A stretch of 64,000 nucleotides of DNA from Fibrobacter sp. (GCF_017551775.1 NZ_JAFZKX010000018.1:6761-70760); one strand, 5' to 3'; positions 26,042 to 40,010 are shown, numbered from the stretch's first letter. Notes: a model not told the origin generated them from the sequence alone. Numbers and translations are program-made.

Positions 26042-29000
26042 ATGGCTTTTGTTCACCTGCAAGTTCATTCCGAATTTTCTGTTTTACAGTCGTCCGCACG
26101 TCTTGACGGTATTCTTGGTGCCGCCGCTAACGATAATGCTCCCGCAGTCGCCCTTACGGACCACGGAGCCATGTTCGGCATCTTGGAAATCCAGACCCGC
26201 GGCAAGGAATTGAATAAGGCCCGCAAGGAGCAGGGACTCCCGCCGGTAAAGACCATTTACGGCTGCCATGTTTATATTGATTCCCCGAGTGCAAGCCAGA
26301 AAGATCCGACGTCATTTGAAAGGTTGACGCTTCTCGTAGAAAACGAGAAGGGCTATTACAACCTCTTGCGCATTGTCAGTTACCGCTACGAGGAAAGCGA
26401 CCGTTGGGCCGAGATTCCCTCGGTTCCGCTAGATGTCGTGAACCAGCACAAGGAAGGTTTGATTGCCATCGCGGGCGACTTCTTTAGCCGTTATGGCCAG
26501 AACGTGTCTTCGGGTCGTGAATCATTGGCCCGCGAGTACATGGATTCCTTGGACAAGATTTTTGATCGGGACCATCTGTACCTGTCTGTATGTGATAACG
26601 GCGTGCCGTTGCAGGGGCGCGTGAACGAGTTCAACGTAAAACTCGCAAACGAAATGGGCCGCGAAGTTGTCGCCGTGGCCGATGTTCACTACATCAAGCC
26701 CGAAGACGCTATGGCCCATAAGGTGCTCCGTTGCATTTCGCTCAAGTGTACGCTGAACGATTTTACGGATGCCCGCTTCCCGACGGACAAATTCTATTTC
26801 CGTACCGAAGAAGAAATGCGTGAGCTGTTCGGGAATATTCCCGGAGCCATCGAGAATACGGTAAAAATTGCGGAACGCTGCAACTTTACCGTAAAGACGG
26901 GTATCGGCGATGATTTCTGGCCGCGTTTTAAAATTCCGAAGGAATTCCTGGAGTCCGACGAATACACGACCATCAAGAATATCATGAAGGCGGAATACGA
27001 TGCCGAATATCCGGGAATCCGCGAACGTGAACTCAAAGGCGTTATCAAGGACAAAAAGAAAAAGGTAACGGAAACATATTGCGCCGAAAAGGGGATTGCA
27101 CCCGATGCGCTTACCGAAGAAGACAAGGCTGAAATAGAACGCTTGTCACAGCCGGAATTCTTTACCGAAGATGATAACAAGGCTTGGGACAAGAACGTCC
27201 ACAGGTGGTGCAAGCCGGGTGGCGATGCCGACATTTACATTACACACCTTTGTAATGAACGCCTTAAATGGCGCTTCCCCGACGAAGATTTTAAGTTCCC
27301 TGCGCACGAGACGGACGTGGCCAAGCGCATGTACAAGGAACTCAACTGTATCCGTAACATGAACGTAGCGGGCTACCTGCTTATTGTGTGGGACTTTATC
27401 AACTGGTCGCGTGAACACGGAATTCCCGTGGGCCCGGGGCGTGGTTCTGCGGCAGGTTCGCTTGTCACTTACATCATCGGTATTACTGACATTGACCCGC
27501 TCAAGTTCGACTTGCTTTTCGAACGCTTCTTGAACCCGGAGCGCGTGAGCATGCCTGATATCGATACGGACTTTGCCGACCGTGACCGCGGGCGCGTTAT
27601 TCAGTACGTGACGGACAAGTACGGTTACGATTGCGTGGGTCAGATTATTACTTACGGTATGCTCAAGTCGAAGGCCGTGGTGACCGACGTGGCGCGCGTG
27701 CTCGGGTTCCCGCCGGCAGAGGCGAAACAGATTACCAAACTGTTCCCGCAGCGCACCTTGAACTTCAGCTTGAAGCAGGCCTGGACGGGTAAAGACAAGA
27801 AGGGCAACAACCTCGAAGATGGTTATAGCCCGGAACCCCTGCAGGCGCTCATCAACAGCCGCGCCAGTTACCAGAACCTTTGGGACATTGCGAAAAAACT
27901 TGAAGATTTGCCGCGACAGACGGGCGTGCATGCGTGCGGCGTGGTGATTACGCCGACCCCGATTTACAACTTGGCTCCGCTATACCGTGCGGCTCCGGCT
28001 GATACCCCGGTGGTGATGTACGACAAGCATTACGCTGAAGATATCGGCCTTTTGAAGATGGACTTCCTTGGGCTCATCAACTTGTCCATCATTCAAGACA
28101 CGGTCAACATGATCAAGAAAAACCGCGGGATTGACCTGGACATGGGCCATATTCCGCTGGACGACAAGTTGACTTTCGACCTTTTGGGCAAGGGAATGAC
28201 GACTACGGTGTTCCAGTTCGAATCTCCGGGTATGCAGAAGTACCTGCGCGAACTGAAACCGACGCGAATTTTCGACTTAATCGCTATGAACGCCCTGTAC
28301 CGTCCGGGGCCTATCGACCAGATTCCGCACTTTATTGCCCGCAAGAACGGCAAGGAAGAAATCGACTGTTACCACCCGGATTTGGAACAGGTGCTGGGCG
28401 AAACTTACGGCGTTATCGTTTATCAGGAACAGGTGATGAAGCTCGCCCAGATTCTGGGCGGTTACACGCTGGGTGGCGCTGACAATATCCGCCGCATCAT
28501 GGCGAAGAAGATGCCTGAAAAGATGGCGAAACTCGAGCCGGAGTTCTTCCAGAAGTGCTTGGACAAGGGCTACGACCGCGCCATGATCCAGAAGGTGTGG
28601 GATGCCGTGCTCCCGTTCTGCGGATACGCGTTCAACAAGAGCCATGCTGCCGCATACGCTTACGTGGCTTACCAGACGGCTTATTTGAAGGCAAATTACG
28701 GCCCGGAATACATGGCCGCCTCCATGACTTCGAAGATGGGCAAGACGGAAGATATCGTCACCATCATCCAGGAATGCAAGCGCATCAATATCCAGGTGCT
28801 TTCCCCGAACATCAATACATCTTATGGCGTGTTCACTGCGGACAAGGAAGGCCACGTCCTTTACGGTTTGGCCGGTATTCGCAACGTGGGCCTTGCGGTT
28901 GTCGAAGATGTTGTTGCCGAACGTGAACGTCGTGGGCCATTCAAGGATATTTTTGATTTCTGCAAGCGCGTTGCGGAATATCAGAGCACATTCAAGGAAA

Positions 29001-29917
29001 AGCACCCGCCCCTGAACAAGAAGGTTCTGGAATGCCTTATCATGGCCGGCGCACTCGATTCGTTCCCCGGCAGCCGCGCTGTGCTTATGGCGACAGTCGA
29101 CAGGGCAATCGAAGTGGCTGCCAAGCACCAAGAAGAAAAGTCGATGGGACAGATGTCCTTGTTCGATATGGGCGGTGCAAGCGCTTCGATGGAGAATACC
29201 GCCGAAGTTCTGGAAGATGCCGAAGATTGGAGCTGCATGGAAATGCTCAACAAGGAACGCGAAGTCCTTGGCATGTTCCTTTCTGGCCACCCGCTCGATG
29301 AATTCCGCCCCGAACTGAAAGGTTTTACGACGGTATCTCTCGCTTATGACGACTTGAGAAAGAAGGTGGATAGCGTTGTGGCCGTCGGTGGTGTGGTGAT
29401 GCAGATGCGCTCTATAGAAACTAAGCGCGGCGATACGATTGGCGTGGGCATGATCCGCGATTTTCATAGCGATGTAGAACTCTTCTTCAAGAAGGATACT
29501 TGGGAAAATTTGCGCGACCGCATTTCCGAAGATGACCGCATTCTGGTGAAGGGTCTTCTCGGTTACAAGCGCGACAAGGAGCGCAAGATGACCGAGGAAC
29601 TCCAGATTACGGTCGAAGAAGTGGTGCAGCTCGATACCGTACGCGAATCTATGGTGAACTTCGTTCATGTGTGCATGGATTCCGTGATGTTCTCGGATGC
29701 GTTCCTTTCGAAGATGGAAGAGGGCATTCAGCAGTATGTCGCCGACATGGGCGAACATTCTTGCGAACTTGTCTGTCATGTGGAAACGGAATCCGGATAC
29801 GAGCATGCCATTGTGCTCCACAAGTACAAGCTGCATTATACGCAGGAACTGCTCAACTGGCTGCGTCAGGATTTGGGCATCATGAAGTTGTGGGTGTCTC
29901 CGAAATCGAGACGCTAA
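26042..29917 (+). CDS. dnaE: DNA polymerase III alpha subunit
   Basis: PHP domain (HLQVHS, TDHG, DVHY), GPGRGSAAGSLV, FERFLNPER..MPDIDTDF, LKMDFLGL, AFNKSHAAAY, clamp motif QMSLF, OB fold. Confidence 0.98.
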   Translation: MAFVHLQVHSEFSVLQSSARLDGILGAAANDNAPAVALTDHGAMFGILEIQTRGKELNKARKEQGLPPVKTIYGCHVYIDSPSASQKDPTSFERLTLLVENEKGYYNLLRIVSYRYEESDRWAEIPSVPLDVVNQHKEGLIAIAGDFFSRYGQNVSSGRESLAREYMDSLDKIFDRDHLYLSVCDNGVPLQGRVNEFNVKLANEMGREVVAVADVHYIKPEDAMAHKVLRCISLKCTLNDFTDARFPTDKFYFRTEEEMRELFGNIPGAIENTVKIAERCNFTVKTGIGDDFWPRFKIPKEFLESDEYTTIKNIMKAEYDAEYPGIRERELKGVIKDKKKKVTETYCAEKGIAPDALTEEDKAEIERLSQPEFFTEDDNKAWDKNVHRWCKPGGDADIYITHLCNERLKWRFPDEDFKFPAHETDVAKRMYKELNCIRNMNVAGYLLIVWDFINWSREHGIPVGPGRGSAAGSLVTYIIGITDIDPLKFDLLFERFLNPERVSMPDIDTDFADRDRGRVIQYVTDKYGYDCVGQIITYGMLKSKAVVTDVARVLGFPPAEAKQITKLFPQRTLNFSLKQAWTGKDKKGNNLEDGYSPEPLQALINSRASYQNLWDIAKKLEDLPRQTGVHACGVVITPTPIYNLAPLYRAAPADTPVVMYDKHYAEDIGLLKMDFLGLINLSIIQDTVNMIKKNRGIDLDMGHIPLDDKLTFDLLGKGMTTTVFQFESPGMQKYLRELKPTRIFDLIAMNALYRPGPIDQIPHFIARKNGKEEIDCYHPDLEQVLGETYGVIVYQEQVMKLAQILGGYTLGGADNIRRIMAKKMPEKMAKLEPEFFQKCLDKGYDRAMIQKVWDAVLPFCGYAFNKSHAAAYAYVAYQTAYLKANYGPEYMAASMTSKMGKTEDIVTIIQECKRINIQVLSPNINTSYGVFTADKEGHVLYGLAGIRNVGLAVVEDVVAERERRGPFKDIFDFCKRVAEYQSTFKEKHPPLNKKVLECLIMAGALDSFPGSRAVLMATVDRAIEVAAKHQEEKSMGQMSLFDMGGASASMENTAEVLEDAEDWSCMEMLNKEREVLGMFLSGHPLDEFRPELKGFTTVSLAYDDLRKKVDSVVAVGGVVMQMRSIETKRGDTIGVGMIRDFHSDVELFFKKDTWENLRDRISEDDRILVKGLLGYKRDKERKMTEELQITVEEVVQLDTVRESMVNFVHVCMDSVMFSDAFLSKMEEGIQQYVADMGEHSCELVCHVETESGYEHAIVLHKYKLHYTQELLNWLRQDLGIMKLWVSPKSRR

Positions 29918-29945: not shown

Positions 29946-31073
29946 ATGCATAAACCCTTTGTCCTTTTCTGTGCGGGCGAGGATTCCGGCGATGTGCTGG
30001 GAGAATCCCTTGTGCGGGAGGCGATTCGCTTGGGGTTCAGGGCCCGCGGTGTCGGCGGGTGCCGGATGCAGGCGGTGGGTCTCGATGCCGTTGACGATTA
30101 TGAGGCGCTGCCTGTATCGGGCTTTCTCGATATCGTGCCGCAGGTGTTTCGCCTAAAGCGCATCTTAGCGCATCTCGAAGGCTTGCTGAAGAGCGAAGAC
30201 TGCGTTGCTATAGTCTGCATCGATTACCCCGGATTCAACATGAAGCTCGTGCGGCTTGCGGAACGCCTGGGCAAGCCCGCCTTGTATGTGGCGCCCCCGC
30301 AGGTCTGGGCCTGGAAGCGCGGTCGGGCCAAGCGTTTGCGTACGGCCCGCCTCGCAGTGCTGTTCGATTTTGAACGCAGGGTCTACGAGAAACTGGGCTG
30401 CAATGCGCAGTGCCTTCGCCATCCGTTCCCGCGGGTCACCGGAACCAATTCGAACGCAGACCTGTTGCTCCTTCCCGGCAGCCGCAAGTCTCAGTCCCTC
30501 CGCAACCTCCCGTTCTTTGCCGCCGTTGCATCGCAGTGGCATTCCGCGACGTCGGGCCGTGCAGTCGTGCTTGCCTCGCGCGAATCTCTTGTCGAACCCT
30601 TCACTCGGGCTATTCGCAAGGCCTTCGGGCAGCGTGTTCCCGAATGGATCTCGGTCGAGGTCCCGCCTCTGGATGCGCTTGCCCGCGCGACCAAGCTCAC
30701 GGAGTATTCCTACGCGCTTTCGGCTCCGGGGTCCGCTTCCCTCGAACTGGCGCGCTCCGGTGTGCCGCTTGTGGTCGCGGGCGTGATTGAGCCTCTTACG
30801 TATTTCATCGGGAGCCGCTTCGTGAAGACGGAATTCTTTGCGCTCCCGAACATCCTGCTTCAGCGCGGGGTCGTTCCCGAATTCTTCTTTACGCGCGGGA
30901 AAGCCTGCAAAAAGGTGAACGTCACCGCGGTTGCTGCGGAACTCTGCAAGTGCAATACAGAAACATCCAGGGCGATTGCGGATACCCTGGATGAGACGTT
31001 CGTGAATGCGAAAAGCTCCGAAGCTCTAATGCTTGAATTTCTTGGCGAGTTCGTCGAGCGTGATGCGCATTAG
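29946..31073 (+). CDS. lpxB: Lipid-A-disaccharide synthase
   Basis: AGEDSGD.LG, IDYPGFN, YVAPPQVWAWK.GR, LLPGSR, FFALPNILL. Confidence 0.88.
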   Translation: MHKPFVLFCAGEDSGDVLGESLVREAIRLGFRARGVGGCRMQAVGLDAVDDYEALPVSGFLDIVPQVFRLKRILAHLEGLLKSEDCVAIVCIDYPGFNMKLVRLAERLGKPALYVAPPQVWAWKRGRAKRLRTARLAVLFDFERRVYEKLGCNAQCLRHPFPRVTGTNSNADLLLLPGSRKSQSLRNLPFFAAVASQWHSATSGRAVVLASRESLVEPFTRAIRKAFGQRVPEWISVEVPPLDALARATKLTEYSYALSAPGSASLELARSGVPLVVAGVIEPLTYFIGSRFVKTEFFALPNILLQRGVVPEFFFTRGKACKKVNVTAVAAELCKCNTETSRAIADTLDETFVNAKSSEALMLEFLGEFVERDAH

Positions 31074-32870
31074 GGTGGGAGCCCCGTAGGGAGACTTGAG
31101 CGGGTCTTCTGTCGACATCAGCTGCCCCATCAACTGGGCCATTTCTTCGGGCTTGAGTTTGTCACCGGCCTGGTAAGCGTTGGTCCTGGACCATGCCTTC
31201 GCGATGGTGTCCGTGATGTGCGACGGGTCCGAATCTCCGGTGTCGGCGCAACTGTCGAGAAACTGGTGAACCGCCTTGATGGCACGGGAGAGGGGGAGCG
31301 CGCTCGGAATGGCGCGAATCTGGAAGGTGTCGCCACCGAAGTGCTCCACGAAAAATCCGAGTTTCCTCAACTGCCCGTCGACGCTTGCGAAGATTTGCTT
31401 TTCAAGCTTGCTGAGCTCGATGAGTTCCGGGAAGAGCAACTCCTGGCTGTCGAGGTCCGATCCGTTCTTTAATGTCGCGAGCGCTTGTTCGTAGAGAATG
31501 CGCGAATGCGCCGCATGCTGGTCGATGATGAGCAGGCCCTCGGCATCTTCTCCGGCGATGTAGGTGTTTGCAATCTGGAAAAGCGTCGGGGGTGTCCACG
31601 GGGCGCTCTCCGGCTTCGGCTCGGGGACGTTCCCTTGTCCGGGTTCAAGCGAGATTATCTTGCCGGCCTCGGGCTGCGAGAACAGGTCCTGCACGTCGTC
31701 TGCGACGCTGTAGCTCTTCGCCTTTTTCCACTCGTTCACTTCGTTATTGCGACGGGGTTCGGGCGTCTTGTAGATGGGGGCGGCGCTGTGTGCGGGGGCG
31801 GCCTGGTATTGCGGTACGGGCGCATCGCCGGTGTCCGCCTGCACCATGCTTGCACTCAGGTCGATAAACGGCGAGTTTGCCTCCAGGTCTTTCTGGAAGG
31901 TATCGCGGATGGCATGGTTCACCACAAGGAACACGAGGTTCTGGTTCGCGAAGCGCACCTCGCGCTTTGCCGGGTGTACGTTCACGTCGAATTCCTGGTC
32001 CGGCATGTCCAGAAACAGGACGGTTACCGGCTTGCACTGCGCGCCGTAGGGCTCGTATGCCTGCGAAACGGCCTTCGCGATCACCTTGCTTTCGATGGGC
32101 CTCTTGCGCATGAAGAGGAACTGGTGGTGGCGCTTGCCGTTAGTTTCTGTTGTGGGGGAGATGTACCCCGTTACGTGAACGCCGGCTTCGGTGTAGTCGA
32201 CCGGCAGGAGGTTCTTGGCGATTCCTGAGCCGATGGCTTCGGCGAGTCGGGTGCGCAGTTCTCCGGGAACCCCGATAAATACGGCTTTTTCACCGACTTT
32301 GTAGTCGAAGCGGATCTCGGGGTGCGCAATCGCGGTCTTCAGCACGACGTCGAGAATCTTCGTGCACTCGGAGGTCTCGCTCCCGAGGAACGTGCGGCGT
32401 ACGGGCGTGTTGAAGAACAGGTCTTCGACAAGGAAGGTCGTACCATGACCGGCGGCGTAAGTTTGTTCTTCTTCGACGTTCCCGCCTTTGAGGATTAACC
32501 GTCCGCCGTCACCATCTTCGGTGGCGGTCGAAATCGTCATTTTCGATATGGCGGCGATGGAGGCGACTGCTTCTCCGCGAAATCCGTTTGTTTGTAAATG
32601 GAATAGGTCGTCTGCCGAATGTAGTTTAGATGTAGTGTGTCTGAGGTAACAAAGGTCAAGGTCTTGCTTGCCCATCCCCTTGCCGTTGTCCGAAACGAGA
32701 ATTTTTTTCTTTCCGCCTTGTTCGATTTGAATTTGGATGCGAGTCGCTCCCGCATCGATGGCATTCTCGATAAGTTCCTTGACGGCGGATGAAGGACGCT
32801 CGATTACCTCACCGGCAGCGATTTTGTTGATAATTTCATCGGTTAAAACGTGTATTTCAGCGTTTTTCAT
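31026..32870 (-). CDS. mutL: DNA mismatch repair protein MutL (endonuclease motifs degenerate)
   Basis: IAAGEVIERPSSAVKELIENAIDAG, DNGKGM, GFRGEA, DVNVHPAKREVRF. C-terminal domain reads DQHAAHSRILYE. ATG at 32870. Confidence 0.95.
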   Translation of the reverse strand: MKNAEIHVLTDEIINKIAAGEVIERPSSAVKELIENAIDAGATRIQIQIEQGGKKKILVSDNGKGMGKQDLDLCYLRHTTSKLHSADDLFHLQTNGFRGEAVASIAAISKMTISTATEDGDGGRLILKGGNVEEEQTYAAGHGTTFLVEDLFFNTPVRRTFLGSETSECTKILDVVLKTAIAHPEIRFDYKVGEKAVFIGVPGELRTRLAEAIGSGIAKNLLPVDYTEAGVHVTGYISPTTETNGKRHHQFLFMRKRPIESKVIAKAVSQAYEPYGAQCKPVTVLFLDMPDQEFDVNVHPAKREVRFANQNLVFLVVNHAIRDTFQKDLEANSPFIDLSASMVQADTGDAPVPQYQAAPAHSAAPIYKTPEPRRNNEVNEWKKAKSYSVADDVQDLFSQPEAGKIISLEPGQGNVPEPKPESAPWTPPTLFQIANTYIAGEDAEGLLIIDQHAAHSRILYEQALATLKNGSDLDSQELLFPELIELSKLEKQIFASVDGQLRKLGFFVEHFGGDTFQIRAIPSALPLSRAIKAVHQFLDSCADTGDSDPSHITDTIAKAWSRTNAYQAGDKLKPEEMAQLMGQLMSTEDPLKSPYGAPTLMRITLDELAKKFKH

Positions 32871-33015
32871 GGCCAAAATATAGCCAAATCATACCCTTTA
32901 CCCTATTTTTTTGTTAAATTGGTGCTGGATTCCGGTGGTTAGGGGTCTCCAAAAAAGAGAGGATAGAATAGTGATATCGAATTTCTTTATGCAACTGGCT
33001 CACATTGAGTTGTTG

Positions 33016-34269
33016 ATGACCTATTCGGTCAAGGATATTCTTTCGCTTGTTCGTCGAGATGCACGATTCGATACAAAGCTCGTTAATGACTTGTTCTTCG
33101 AAGGAACATTCATTGACGAAAACTCCCACCATTTTGTCTTCGACAATCTGGTGCAATGGTTGTATGACCGTGGTGAAAATCCAGACGATTTCGTTGAACG
33201 AATAGTAAAACGATGCGCTGATTTCGAGGCAGTTCCTGCTCGTAGCGTTCTTCGTTCTTACTTGCCGTTCGTGTCGCAGTTCTACCAGACAAAGGACGTT
33301 CGCGCACTTTGCCTGGAAATAATTCCTAAGCGCTACCCGTTCCTTATCAATGCCGGAATTCTTCGCGATACTATTCAAGACGACGAACGGACGATGTTCT
33401 TCACCTTCCAGTTCGAGACACCGGGCGCCCTGGTTTCTAACCCGATGCGCTGGGCGCTTGGCCTCTTCCGCATTGGCCCGCTCCTCTTGAACACGCCCGC
33501 TTACGAGCATATGGGCTATGTTGCTACGCAGACCTCCTTTATTGAAGCCCTTGAAAACCGCGTCCCTGCCGAGATGGTGGATGGCAACGTTTACATTGGC
33601 GATAAGCTGGTTGGCCGGACCACCACGTTCGGTGAATGCATCGATGAATACGGCTTTGAATGGCCGAGAGCGTCTGAAAGGGAAATGGGCTGTGTGCTCG
33701 CTCTCGACGATGTCTATGATACCAAGACGAACTCTCTCTTGCTCCGCAAGGGCTGCTACTACGGTACGCCGAGCAACATCCTCGATGCGAGGTTCAAGGC
33801 GAATGTCGTCACTCAGGAACCGTTCCTCAAGCTGATGAGCTCCGTGGTTAAGCAGGAGTTCGACGTCTGGCAGCCTATCCAGAAGGCGCAGGAACAGCTT
33901 CTCGGAGCGATGAATGACTCTGTAGAAGTGGTGTATTACAAGAGCGATGACTCCATTTCGGTGAACAGCAAGCACCTCATGCGTAACGTGCCTGCTAGAA
34001 TTCTCCGCAACCTGCTGCGTGAATACACGGCAACGGGCCGCGAGGAATACGAGAACCGTGAATTCAAGCGCGATCCGTCCATCTGCATGGACCCGATGCG
34101 TCCGAACTTCGAGAGCAGGTTGAACCGTGTTATAGCTCACATCAACGGCACCGAAGAGAAGGATGGCTCCATGAGCGAAGGCGTGAAGAAGTTCTTTGAA
34201 ATCGAGCGTCATCGCCGTGGTGGCTTCAGATTCCTGCCGAAATGCAAGATTATTTTCCGTGAGGAATAA
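33016..34269 (+). CDS. Hypothetical protein with C-terminal winged-helix-like domain (putative regulator)
   Basis: Coding-like ORF (start 33016 or 32989). C-terminus ISVNSKHLMRNVPARILRNLL..GREEYENREFKRDP..NFESRLNRV..IERHRRGGFRF resembles OmpR/PhoB-type wHTH outputs. Confidence 0.6.
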   Translation: MTYSVKDILSLVRRDARFDTKLVNDLFFEGTFIDENSHHFVFDNLVQWLYDRGENPDDFVERIVKRCADFEAVPARSVLRSYLPFVSQFYQTKDVRALCLEIIPKRYPFLINAGILRDTIQDDERTMFFTFQFETPGALVSNPMRWALGLFRIGPLLLNTPAYEHMGYVATQTSFIEALENRVPAEMVDGNVYIGDKLVGRTTTFGECIDEYGFEWPRASEREMGCVLALDDVYDTKTNSLLLRKGCYYGTPSNILDARFKANVVTQEPFLKLMSSVVKQEFDVWQPIQKAQEQLLGAMNDSVEVVYYKSDDSISVNSKHLMRNVPARILRNLLREYTATGREEYENREFKRDPSICMDPMRPNFESRLNRVIAHINGTEEKDGSMSEGVKKFFEIERHRRGGFRFLPKCKIIFREE

Positions 34270-37789: not shown

Positions 37790-37853
37790 TTGCCTGATTT
37801 TTTTAGATAGCGGGGCGCGGAGCTAGAATCGCCCCATTCCATCGAGGTTGATT

Positions 37854-40010
37854 ATGGATGCCGAGGGCATCTTGCGCGGTCTGAACGCAGACCAGCGCGC
37901 AGCCGTTTTACACGATCATCAAAAAGGGGCGCAACTGCTTATCCTTGCGGGGGCGGGCTCGGGCAAGACTTCCGTCCTTACGAAGCGGATCCAGTACCGC
38001 ATCGCCATGGGCGTGAATCCCGAAAACATCTTGGCGCTCACGTTCACGGCAGCGGCCGCTTCCGAAATGCGGGAGCGCGTGCAGGCGCTGTTCCCCGGAG
38101 CGGGCGTGCGGCTTTGCACGTTTCATTCGCTTGCGCTCTACATGCTCAAGCAGAAAATAGGGAATGCGTTCGCTTACGAGATGGTTGGCTTCAAAAAGCC
38201 ACCCGTGCCGCAGGAATCGGCGGACCGCGACTTTATGGAAGAACTTTCGCGGCACCATGTTCGCGGGGCGAAGTTCAACCGTGAAAATCTATTCGACGAT
38301 ACATTGCAATCGAAGCTCACATCACGCCTCGGGATACTCCGGCAGTCCGTGCTCGAAAGCGGGCAGGTCGTGTTCGAGGATTTGATATTTCAGGCGATAC
38401 ACCTGCTCGAAGATCACGAAGAGGCCCGTGCGTTTTTCCAGCGGCAGTGGACGGAAATCCTGGTGGATGAATATCAGGATATAAACCCGTCGCAGTACCG
38501 CATGGTGAAGGCGCTCCTGGGGGATAGGAATAGTTTGTTTGTAGTCGGTGACGATGACCAGGCTATTTACGGGTTCCGCGGGGCAGATATCGGGAACATC
38601 AACCGTTTTTGCGATGACTTCAGGGAGAGTACGCTTATCCGGCTGGAGTGGAATTACCGTTCCACGCCGAGCATTCTGCACCTCGCCAATGACATCTTCG
38701 AAAACAAGCCGCTCAGGCTCCGCAAGGTGTTGCGGGCTGGAAATCCGAAGGGTTCGGGGGGCAACCCGATTTTCAGGGAGAATCGGCCTCCCGAGGTGTG
38801 GGTGTCCGAAACGCCCATCGAGGAAATGCTCAAGATTATCTGTAAGATAAAGGAACTGCGCGAAAGCTACGACCTCGCCTGGAAAAATTTCGCCATCTTG
38901 GTACGGTACAACCGCCAGCGCGTCTACTACGAGCAAGTCTTGCGCGATGCGGAACTGCCGATAGCGGGCGAGGAGGTGGAAGATGGTACGGTCGAAGACG
39001 GAATCCACGTAGAGACGGTGCATGCGTCGAAGGGCTTGCAGTACGCTGTGGTTTTTTATGCCGGGCTTGCCGAAGGGCTCACCCCCGGAGAGTGCGGCGG
39101 CAGCAGGCGGGAGCGGAAAAAGCAACTGGATGAAGAACGGCGGCTCTATTATGTCGGGGTCACGCGGGCTGAGGCATACCTGATTTTGTTATATTGTAAA
39201 CAGCGTTACTGGAAGGGCCGTCTCCGCAATTACAGGCGGTCGAGGTTCCTGCCCCGCAGCGCGAATAATCAGCAGGATTTCTATATGCCTATTATTTTGT
39301 TCAAAATCCGCGTTGTCGTCTTGGTACTTTCGTACATGTTCGTACATATGCTGATTCTGCCGTTTATGTTGATTTTCAGGCGCAAGGAAGTCGACCTCTG
39401 GCTGGACAAGAAAATTCAGAGTTTTGCCCGGTTCTGCATGAAGGTTTTGCGGATTGATCTTTCGGTCGAAGATCAGGCTATCCTTGGTCGTGTCGATTGG
39501 ACGCGCCCTGTGTTCGTGATGGGCAACCACAATTCGTATGCGGACATCCCGATAATTTTCCTTGCTATTGAACGTACCATAGGTTTTATCGCGAAGGCTG
39601 AATTGCGGTTTATCCCGTTCCTTGGATTCTGGATGAAGAAGATTGGCTGCGTGCTCATCAACCGCGAAAAGGGCGGCGGCGCAAAACTTATCCGCGAGGC
39701 GATGGCGAAAGGCCGGGCTCCGAGGCTGTTTATTTTCCCGGAAGGAACCCGTGGCAAGGACGAAAACATGGTCCCGTTCAAGAGCGGCGGGTTCAGGCTT
39801 GCGGCGGAGACCGAGGCTACTATTCTCCCGGTCTATATCAAGGGCTCCGGTTTTACTTGGGAACACCGCAAGGATTCCTCTCGATGCAAGGTGACGGTGA
39901 AGATTCTTGAACCTGTAGACGTGAAGGCGATGATTGCCGAACGCGGTCCGCTTGACCCGCGCAAGGACTTGATGCACCTTGTCCGCGACAGGATGGATGC
40001 GGCCGTATGA
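37854..40010 (+). CDS. Fusion of a compact UvrD/Rep-like SF1A helicase and a PlsC-like 1-acyl-glycerol-3-phosphate acyltransferase
   Basis: Helicase motifs GAGSGKT, VDEYQD, GDDDQAIYGFRGA, NYRST, TVHASKGLQY, EERRLYYVGVTRA. Then, in frame, NHNSYADI (HxxxxD), FIAKAEL, IFPEGTR. Confidence 0.85.
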   Translation: MDAEGILRGLNADQRAAVLHDHQKGAQLLILAGAGSGKTSVLTKRIQYRIAMGVNPENILALTFTAAAASEMRERVQALFPGAGVRLCTFHSLALYMLKQKIGNAFAYEMVGFKKPPVPQESADRDFMEELSRHHVRGAKFNRENLFDDTLQSKLTSRLGILRQSVLESGQVVFEDLIFQAIHLLEDHEEARAFFQRQWTEILVDEYQDINPSQYRMVKALLGDRNSLFVVGDDDQAIYGFRGADIGNINRFCDDFRESTLIRLEWNYRSTPSILHLANDIFENKPLRLRKVLRAGNPKGSGGNPIFRENRPPEVWVSETPIEEMLKIICKIKELRESYDLAWKNFAILVRYNRQRVYYEQVLRDAELPIAGEEVEDGTVEDGIHVETVHASKGLQYAVVFYAGLAEGLTPGECGGSRRERKKQLDEERRLYYVGVTRAEAYLILLYCKQRYWKGRLRNYRRSRFLPRSANNQQDFYMPIILFKIRVVVLVLSYMFVHMLILPFMLIFRRKEVDLWLDKKIQSFARFCMKVLRIDLSVEDQAILGRVDWTRPVFVMGNHNSYADIPIIFLAIERTIGFIAKAELRFIPFLGFWMKKIGCVLINREKGGGAKLIREAMAKGRAPRLFIFPEGTRGKDENMVPFKSGGFRLAAETEATILPVYIKGSGFTWEHRKDSSRCKVTVKILEPVDVKAMIAERGPLDPRKDLMHLVRDRMDAAV

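Follow-up and report, generated by a model that had tools for sequence, protein, structure and literature searches.

A MutL predicted to lack the canonical endonuclease site in Fibrobacter and throughout the class Fibrobacteria

According to the textbook rule, bacteria carry either MutH together with a nuclease-less MutL, or no MutH, in which case MutL itself acts as the nickase. Here we analyze mutL, the MutL gene of a 64,000-nucleotide stretch of the genome of Fibrobacter sp. (GCF_017551775.1, NZ_JAFZKX010000018.1:6761-70760; hereafter the window), whose product appears from its alignment to have lost the canonical nicking site. The same loss extends through the class Fibrobacteria, to which Fibrobacter belongs. 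Taken together, we tentatively hypothesize, at slightly less than an even chance, that this protein is a vertically inherited, nuclease-dead matchmaker tethered to the beta clamp, and that excision would begin from pre-existing breaks in the nascent strand.

The MutL endonuclease site of Fibrobacter

The gene, its N-terminal domain and the motifs discussed below lie in the window as follows.

31026-32876, minus strand: mutL, the sole MutL gene in the window, 616 amino acids from a TTG start (open reading frame list and translation)
31887-32876, minus strand: N-terminal GHKL ATPase and transducer domain, approximately residues 1-330, with Pfam matches at 27-121 and 212-327
31488-31523, minus strand: degenerate DQHA(X)2E(X)4E motif, reading DQHAAHSRILYE (bases re-read and aligned to 3gab)
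31428-31445, minus strand: beta-clamp-binding motif QELLFP of the regulatory subdomain, kept, fitting the consensus QXX[LI]XP and aligning with QEMIVP of Bacillus subtilis MutL
31182-31190, minus strand: position of the (A/S)C(K/R) motif, reading S-R-T; SCK of 3gab aligns with SRT, and the Cys ligand is replaced by Arg
31077-31094, minus strand: position of the C(P/N)HGRP motif, reading SPYGAP; it aligns with CPHGRP and has Ser for Cys, Tyr for His and Ala for Arg

Because homologues measure 614 amino acids, the true start of mutL is likely the ATG at 32870, which would give a product of the same length. Its Pfam domains, HATPase_c_3 (E = 3e-14), DNA_mis_repair (E = 3.5e-29) and MutL_C (PF08676, E = 9e-30, covering model positions 1-142 of 142), make up the usual MutL architecture, and the product matches MutL N-terminal domains in the PDB with E-values down to 2.5e-68. 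ATPase motifs I-IV and the HPAK lysine are intact (ELIENAIDA, DNGKG, GFRGEA, GTTFLVEDLFFNTPVR and HPAKREV). The top Foldseek matches of a model of the C-terminal domain are MutL C-terminal domains, although the mean predicted local distance difference test score (pLDDT) of that model is only 64. With both the N-terminal module and MutL_C present, the product is assigned to the MutL family.

The C-terminal 194 residues were aligned by phmmer to the C-terminal domain of B. subtilis MutL (3gab/3kdk), with an E-value of 5e-20 over 183 residues. This alignment pairs DQHAAQERIKYE of B. subtilis with DQHAAHSRILYE of Fibrobacter, in which a Ser (codon TCG, 31503-31505) takes the place of the metal-bridging Glu. 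In total, substitutions affect four of the five zinc ligands of the B. subtilis site, namely E468, C573, C604 and H606 in B. subtilis numbering (Pillon et al. 2010), where Fibrobacter has Ser, Arg, Ser and Tyr, respectively. Unchanged are the DQH histidine as well as the first Asp and the last Glu. Because the equivalents of these four ligands and the Arg of CPHGRP are all replaced, the metal site that defines the nuclease, and with it the canonical MutL nicking site, appears to be gone; of the features of an endonuclease-type MutL, the metal-bridging Glu, the (A/S)C(K/R) Cys, and the Cys and His of CPHGRP are missing, while the clamp motif is present.

The initial annotation of this stretch had stated that MutL lost every endonuclease and zinc ligand. 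This is slightly overstated, since the DQH histidine remains and four of the five ligands are replaced, but its individual readings are borne out. Base-by-base re-reading places the Ser codon in the degenerate DQHA motif at exactly the position it gave, SRT indeed stands opposite SCK where it noted a missing ACR/SCK cysteine, and its reading of CPHGRP as SPYGAP agrees both with the bases and with the alignment to 3gab. The ATPase and clamp motifs that it described as intact were likewise found so in a motif check. The ligand loss supports its premise that the canonical site of this MutL is unable to nick.

Distribution of the degenerate site within Fibrobacterota

The degenerate site is common to all 120 Fibrobacter homologues found by protein search, several of which are named Fibrobacter and which are 72-99% identical in the C-terminal domain. 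A sequencing error, against which the initial annotation had already argued, is not a tenable explanation when 120 of 120 homologues of at least 72% identity share the state. Across the 121 Fibrobacter sequences, QELLFP is identical in every one and the CPHGRP position always reads [ST]P[YF]GxP. Where the Glu has been lost, these sequences carry S, T, L, C or M, and the rest of the motif is invariant.

For the phylum as a whole, 151 genomes were sampled and the C-terminal region was taken from 40 of them. Both cysteines and the CPHGRP histidine are missing in all sampled members of families f1-f6, which belong to the same GTDB class as Fibrobacter, whereas DQH[AV]AHE, ACx and CPHGRP are all kept in all sampled members of families f7-f17, which belong to sister classes. 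The loss noticed in one gene is, in other words, a loss throughout its own class of a site that the sister classes keep. In the class-wide alignment, A[RKNS]x is found where the sister classes have ACG, and no sampled member of the class has a Cys in the (A/S)C(K/R) segment. By contrast, Q[EQ]LLFP is retained over most of the class.

The remnants of the site differ from lineage to lineage. Fibrobacter keeps the Asp and His of the DQH..E motif and has lost the Glu, whereas families f4-f5 have lost the Asp and His (reading N/H/Q-Q-Q/K in place of the Fibrobacter D-Q-H) and kept the Glu, and f6 has lost only the His, again keeping the Glu. Other genera of Fibrobacteraceae read DQN, DQA or DQS, and elsewhere in the class the position occupied by Tyr in SPYGAP holds S, G, T, A, F or K. 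That the DQH..E motif decays differently between lineages of the class indicates relaxed constraint on catalysis. Decay of this kind would be expected if the site had been inactivated once in an ancestor and the remaining catalytic residues had then come under weaker constraint. Apparent MutL "fusions" of about 1100 amino acids in genus g2 turned out to be an open antisense frame across the neighboring gene, and no fusion exists.

Phylogenetic origin and losses in other phyla

A maximum-likelihood tree was built from the N-terminal domain only, so that the columns of the trait itself were left out. In this tree, the Fibrobacteria with a dead site form one clade (support 99/94), which groups with the intact MutLs of other Fibrobacterota (90/92). 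The dead MutLs of Bacteroidota form a separate clade, sister to an intact Ignavibacteriota sequence (100/98), and the dead MutL of Pelagicoccus (Verrucomicrobiota, L101) is sister to an intact Verrucomicrobiia MutL (100/96). Because the tree separates Fibrobacteria, Bacteroidota and Pelagicoccus from one another, the loss in Fibrobacteria is vertically inherited and independent of the other losses; it is a single, ancient event on the stem of the class. Transfer of mutL from Bacteroidota is ruled out by the grouping of Fibrobacteria with intact Fibrobacterota.

MutL motifs were also tabulated for 80 named loci from species-representative genomes. The ligands are missing in about 37 of the 38 MutLs labelled Bacteroidota, from five or more orders; the dead sequences come from Flavobacteriales, Chitinophagales, Sphingobacteriales, Bacteroidales (including Bacteroides and Prevotella), Saprospiraceae and Cytophagales. 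A Calditrichia cluster (P0272) is also without the metal ligands. Intact MutLs were found in Pseudomonadota, Bacillota, Chloroflexota, Acidobacteriota, Planctomycetota, Marinimicrobia, Zixibacteria and Ignavibacteriota, and in archaeal examples. The independent losses in Bacteroidota, the Calditrichia cluster and Pelagicoccus suggest that a lineage can dispense with the nuclease and need not gain MutH in exchange.

Several further observations were made on these loci. Two of them disagree with their labels: L110, from a metagenome-assembled genome (MAG) labelled Bacteroidetes, has an intact MutL resembling those of Marinimicrobia and Ignavibacteria, and L070, from a MAG labelled Hyphomicrobiales, has a dead MutL of the Bacteroidota type followed by two open reading frames sized and placed like the rhomboid pair downstream of mutL in Bacteroidota. 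Both contigs are probably mis-binned or mislabelled. The Bacteroidota gene string, which is conserved and headed by mutL, consists of mutL, two rhomboid genes, and a gene for a 340-376-amino-acid protein of the EEP (endonuclease/exonuclease/phosphatase) family with two to three N-terminal transmembrane helices (loci L067-L146; G175-G179), and the EEP gene was found downstream of mutL in all five Bacteroidota genomes checked, from several orders. In several other MutL clusters (proteins P0170, P0179, P0200, P0206, P0209, P0241, P0253 and P0258), DPHGRP or D[VI]HGR[PA] replaces CPHGRP, with DQHxAHE and the ACx cysteine kept; these may represent an Asp-for-Cys variant of the metal site.

Selection on the nuclease-dead protein

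MutL_C is present in all 72 sampled genomes of the class, including one of only 1.6 Mb. Among 116 full-length Fibrobacter proteins, mean identity to the query is 87% in the ATPase domain, 81% in the C-terminal domain and 55% in the linker. Over the last 190 codons, the ratio of nonsynonymous to synonymous substitution rates (dN/dS) is 0.07 at a dS of 0.72, and 0.11 where dS is near saturation. The nuclease-dead C-terminal domain is under purifying selection, and mutL is not decaying.

Comparison with known MutL systems

The closest relatives of the Fibrobacter C-terminal domain are endonuclease-type MutLs, represented by those of B. subtilis (3gab/3kdg/3kdk) and Neisseria gonorrhoeae (NgoL, 3ncv), by sequence (E = 5e-20 and 1e-15) and by the top Foldseek matches (1e-9 to 1e-7). 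The order of domains and the position of the clamp motif are alike, and the N-terminal-domain tree shows shared ancestry with the endonuclease-type sequences of the sister classes. Unlike all of these, the Fibrobacter protein is without the metal site.

In that respect it is like E. coli MutL (C-terminal domain 1x9z), which has no endonuclease ligands and keeps the ATPase, dimerization and clamp-binding motif, and by analogy the Fibrobacter protein would presumably act as a matchmaker. However, the two differ in descent: sequence comparison misses the E. coli domain (E > 1), which also ranks below the endonuclease-type folds in Foldseek (2e-4 for 1x9z, compared with 1e-9 for 3ncv and 3kdg, all obtained with the low-confidence model of mean pLDDT 64). 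Nor is descent from the gammaproteobacterial nuclease-less MutLs indicated, as the tree places the Fibrobacter protein with intact Fibrobacterota. Further, the E. coli partners MutH and Dam are missing from this Fibrobacter genome. A nuclease-less MutL of independent origin and without these partners would constitute a variant apart from the E. coli type.

Among eukaryotes, the MutL-beta type partners human PMS1 and yeast Mlh2, as well as MLH1, also combine ATPase and C-terminal dimerization domains with the lack of a metal site. These proteins are accessory or scaffold subunits that form heterodimers beside a nuclease-proficient paralogue (PMS2/Pms1, MLH3). Fibrobacter, on the other hand, has a single MutL gene, and its MutL would be a homodimer without an active subunit. 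The Bacteroidota MutLs resemble that of Fibrobacter in having no Cys/His ligands, keeping QxxLFP and occurring without MutH, but their loss is a separate one, and the operon of mutL, two rhomboid genes and a membrane EEP gene is missing in Fibrobacter.

Repair partners and candidate substitute nucleases

The Fibrobacter genome is 98.4% complete. It encodes one MutS, which has the full set of five domains and carries GDFFE for mismatch binding, a Walker A motif and, at the C terminus, the clamp-type motif QIDMF. UvrD-family helicases and ExoVII are also present. MutL_C and DNA_mis_repair each match only mutL, and profile searches with these two domains revealed no second MutL or MutL paralogue in the genome, so that an intact second copy, which would have undone the initial annotation, does not appear to exist.

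We then considered the known enzymes that might nick in place of MutL. NucS is ruled out, since PF01939 has no match in the genome. Dam-directed repair is ruled out as well: PF02086, the D12-class Dam methylase family, has no match in the genome, and Dam-type methylases are patchy across the class, being present in 51 of 81 class genomes and in 8 of 20 Fibrobacter genomes. The only match to the MutH family (PF02976) is a 474-amino-acid protein with two MutH-like domains, and no dedicated single-domain MutH (about 230 amino acids) was found in the genome. Across the phylum, this family occurs in 7 of 151 genomes, in frames of 444-534 amino acids except for one marginal match (E = 1.4e-4, in a 248-amino-acid frame). 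The protein is assigned, with the C5 methylase encoded beside it, to a Sau3AI-type restriction system; MutH is accordingly rejected as the substitute, the family being represented by a sporadic two-domain restriction enzyme in a defence island. This island lies at a contig end (G000:C62; L004 5492-11093) and holds the Sau3AI-like enzyme, the C5 methylase (447 amino acids), a GmrSD-type protein (593 amino acids) and an HNH protein. Of the sources named in the initial annotation, namely a MutH-like, NucS or novel nuclease or a repurposed MutL, those of the MutH and NucS types are excluded here. A novel nuclease, the lack of any dedicated nuclease and a repurposed MutL are left as candidate readings, and its proposal is in this sense partly supported.

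A second family to be weighed is Vsr, for which this genome has a solitary gene.

G000:C94:56949-57389 (L051 4950-5390), plus strand: solitary Vsr of this genome

All 35 Fibrobacter genomes and 13 of the 14 g2 genomes carry Vsr, at 55-75% identity. In eight of the nine genomes examined, in which its open reading frame could be placed, it lies among housekeeping genes and never beside a C5 methylase, and its genomic context differs between all genomes examined. It was not found in most of the other sampled genera that carry a dead MutL, with no Vsr in the sampled genomes of genera g3-g9 and Vsr in 3 of 15 in f4-f6. Because each sampled Fibrobacter and g2 genome contains between 1 and 21 C5 methylases, ordinary very-short-patch repair accounts for its presence. 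Vsr was rejected as a replacement on both grounds. Stand-alone Smr occurs throughout the phylum regardless of the state of MutL, and its equal presence in classes with intact MutL speaks against it as well.

Genes near mutL and mutS were compared by synteny, and no nuclease-like gene conserved across the class was found next to either. The gene divergent from mutL is the following.

32911-34269, plus strand: divergent neighbor of mutL, 432-452 amino acids (452 here), with no Pfam domain

The two genes stand together in 53 of 55 Fibrobacteraceae genomes, as they do in family f3. However, paralogues, often two to four per genome, occur in other Fibrobacterota classes with intact MutL, and a confident AlphaFold model of the protein (pLDDT 85) matched no nuclease fold, the best PDB match being a weak one to an H-NOX domain (E = 0.15). 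It was therefore rejected as a replacement nuclease, and is probably a sensor or regulator. The gene mutS is flanked by scpB and a small HD-domain gene. The EEP gene of Bacteroidota was not retained as a candidate either, given its two to three N-terminal transmembrane helices, its association with rhomboids and the lack of the arrangement in Fibrobacter. Overall, no known substitute is encoded throughout the lineage.

Two other features of the window may be mentioned here. The gene dnaE (26042-29917, plus strand) adjoins or lies near mutL, as it does at loci L055 and L056 from two other families of the order. A 720-amino-acid open reading frame at 37848-40010 (plus strand) joins the N-terminal part of a UvrD/Rep-type helicase (approximately residues 1-450) to a PlsC-type acyltransferase (PF01553, 552-665), and is either an odd fusion or two genes read through.

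Models for strand incision

In our reading, a single event in the ancestor of Fibrobacteria inactivated the endonuclease site, the leftover residues then decayed lineage by lineage, and MutL would still be a working component of mismatch repair, paired with the complete, clamp-motif-bearing MutS. MutL would act as a matchmaker in the E. coli style rather than as a nickase. MutS would recruit it at a mismatch and the clamp would hold it at the replisome, where it would license a UvrD-type helicase and exonucleases. We infer that the source of incision lies outside MutL, and excision might start at discontinuities already present in the new strand, such as 3' ends, the ends of Okazaki fragments and repair nicks. 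This source of ends, which we hold to be nearly as probable as not, is slightly favored over a dedicated nuclease because at least three or four lineages have independently dispensed with the MutL nuclease in the absence of MutH.

Several points weigh against this proposal. No MutH-less bacterium tested so far (B. subtilis, P. aeruginosa, Thermus, Neisseria and Caulobacter) is known to retain mismatch repair once the MutL endonuclease site is mutated, so that no bacterial in vivo precedent is known for nick-directed repair without a dedicated nuclease. In addition, the helix DQHAAH.R.LYE and the loop LKSP.G.PTL are nearly invariant within the genus, which could reflect a function retained at the old site rather than structure alone.

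The strongest alternative, which we regard as a serious candidate but on balance unlikely, is a MutH-analogue nuclease outside the tested families that is recruited or activated by the nuclease-dead MutL and cuts the strand. The only characterized nuclease-less bacterial MutL, that of E. coli, works with a separate nickase, and the highly conserved surface of the old active site in Fibrobacter could serve as its docking surface; the loss of repair in endonuclease-site mutants of other MutH-less bacteria also favors such an enzyme. However, no candidate emerged among the MutH family, NucS, Vsr, Smr, the neighbors of mutL and mutS or the 452-amino-acid protein, and four or more independent losses would each require such a gain.

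It is also conceivable, although improbable, that MutS and MutL are retained chiefly for tasks independent of MutL incision, such as rejecting diverged recombination partners or signalling damage, with mismatch correction weak or absent. In E. coli, MutS and MutL contribute far more than MutH to the barrier against homeologous recombination, and universal retention and purifying selection are compatible with any function of the two proteins. On the other hand, the beta-clamp motifs of both point to coupling with replication, the genomes bear no obvious sign of a long-term mutator, and the trait spans whole large clades, including Bacteroidota.

Very improbable, in our judgment, is a remodelled site in which the Asp, His and Glu of DQH...E bind catalytic Mn2+ or Mg2+ together with the new Ser and Tyr and still nick. 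Within the genus, the invariance of D, H and the last E and the conservation of the SPYG loop would fit such a site, but no set of residues is conserved across the class, where the DQH and Tyr positions vary, and the position of the replaced Glu itself varies. Moreover, single substitutions of this Glu abolish nicking in the B. subtilis, yeast and human homologues. Least probable of all is the co-option, in this particular genome, of the Sau3AI-like enzyme or the solitary Vsr as a MutL-activated nickase: both families have members that MutL stimulates in E. coli (MutH and Vsr), and Vsr is nearly universal in Fibrobacter and g2 and stands apart from C5 methylases, but the Sau3AI-like gene occurs in only 7 of 151 genomes and sits with a methylase in a defence island, and Vsr was not found in the sampled genomes of g3-g9 or in most of f4-f6 despite the same dead MutL, has an explanation in the C5 methylases, and gives no strand discrimination.

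Implications

The textbook rule is broken by this gene, by the whole class Fibrobacteria and, through an independent loss, by Bacteroidota, which include major gut and rumen organisms. We found no description of a nuclease-less MutL outside MutH-bearing bacteria in the open-access literature, although an earlier description elsewhere is possible. At odds that we consider well short of even, a third route to the strand cut, involving neither the MutL endonuclease nor MutH, may operate in Fibrobacteria and to have arisen independently in Bacteroidota and in some members of Calditrichia and Verrucomicrobiota would be required of it. Such a route, if true, would mean either a new nuclease licensed by a clamp-bound, nuclease-dead MutL, or an incision-free use of replication-associated ends. 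If repair is still active, the step at which the new strand is selected and cut in these abundant bacteria becomes a question that can be tested with defined genes, and the repeated independent losses provide natural sister-group contrasts for finding the missing component.

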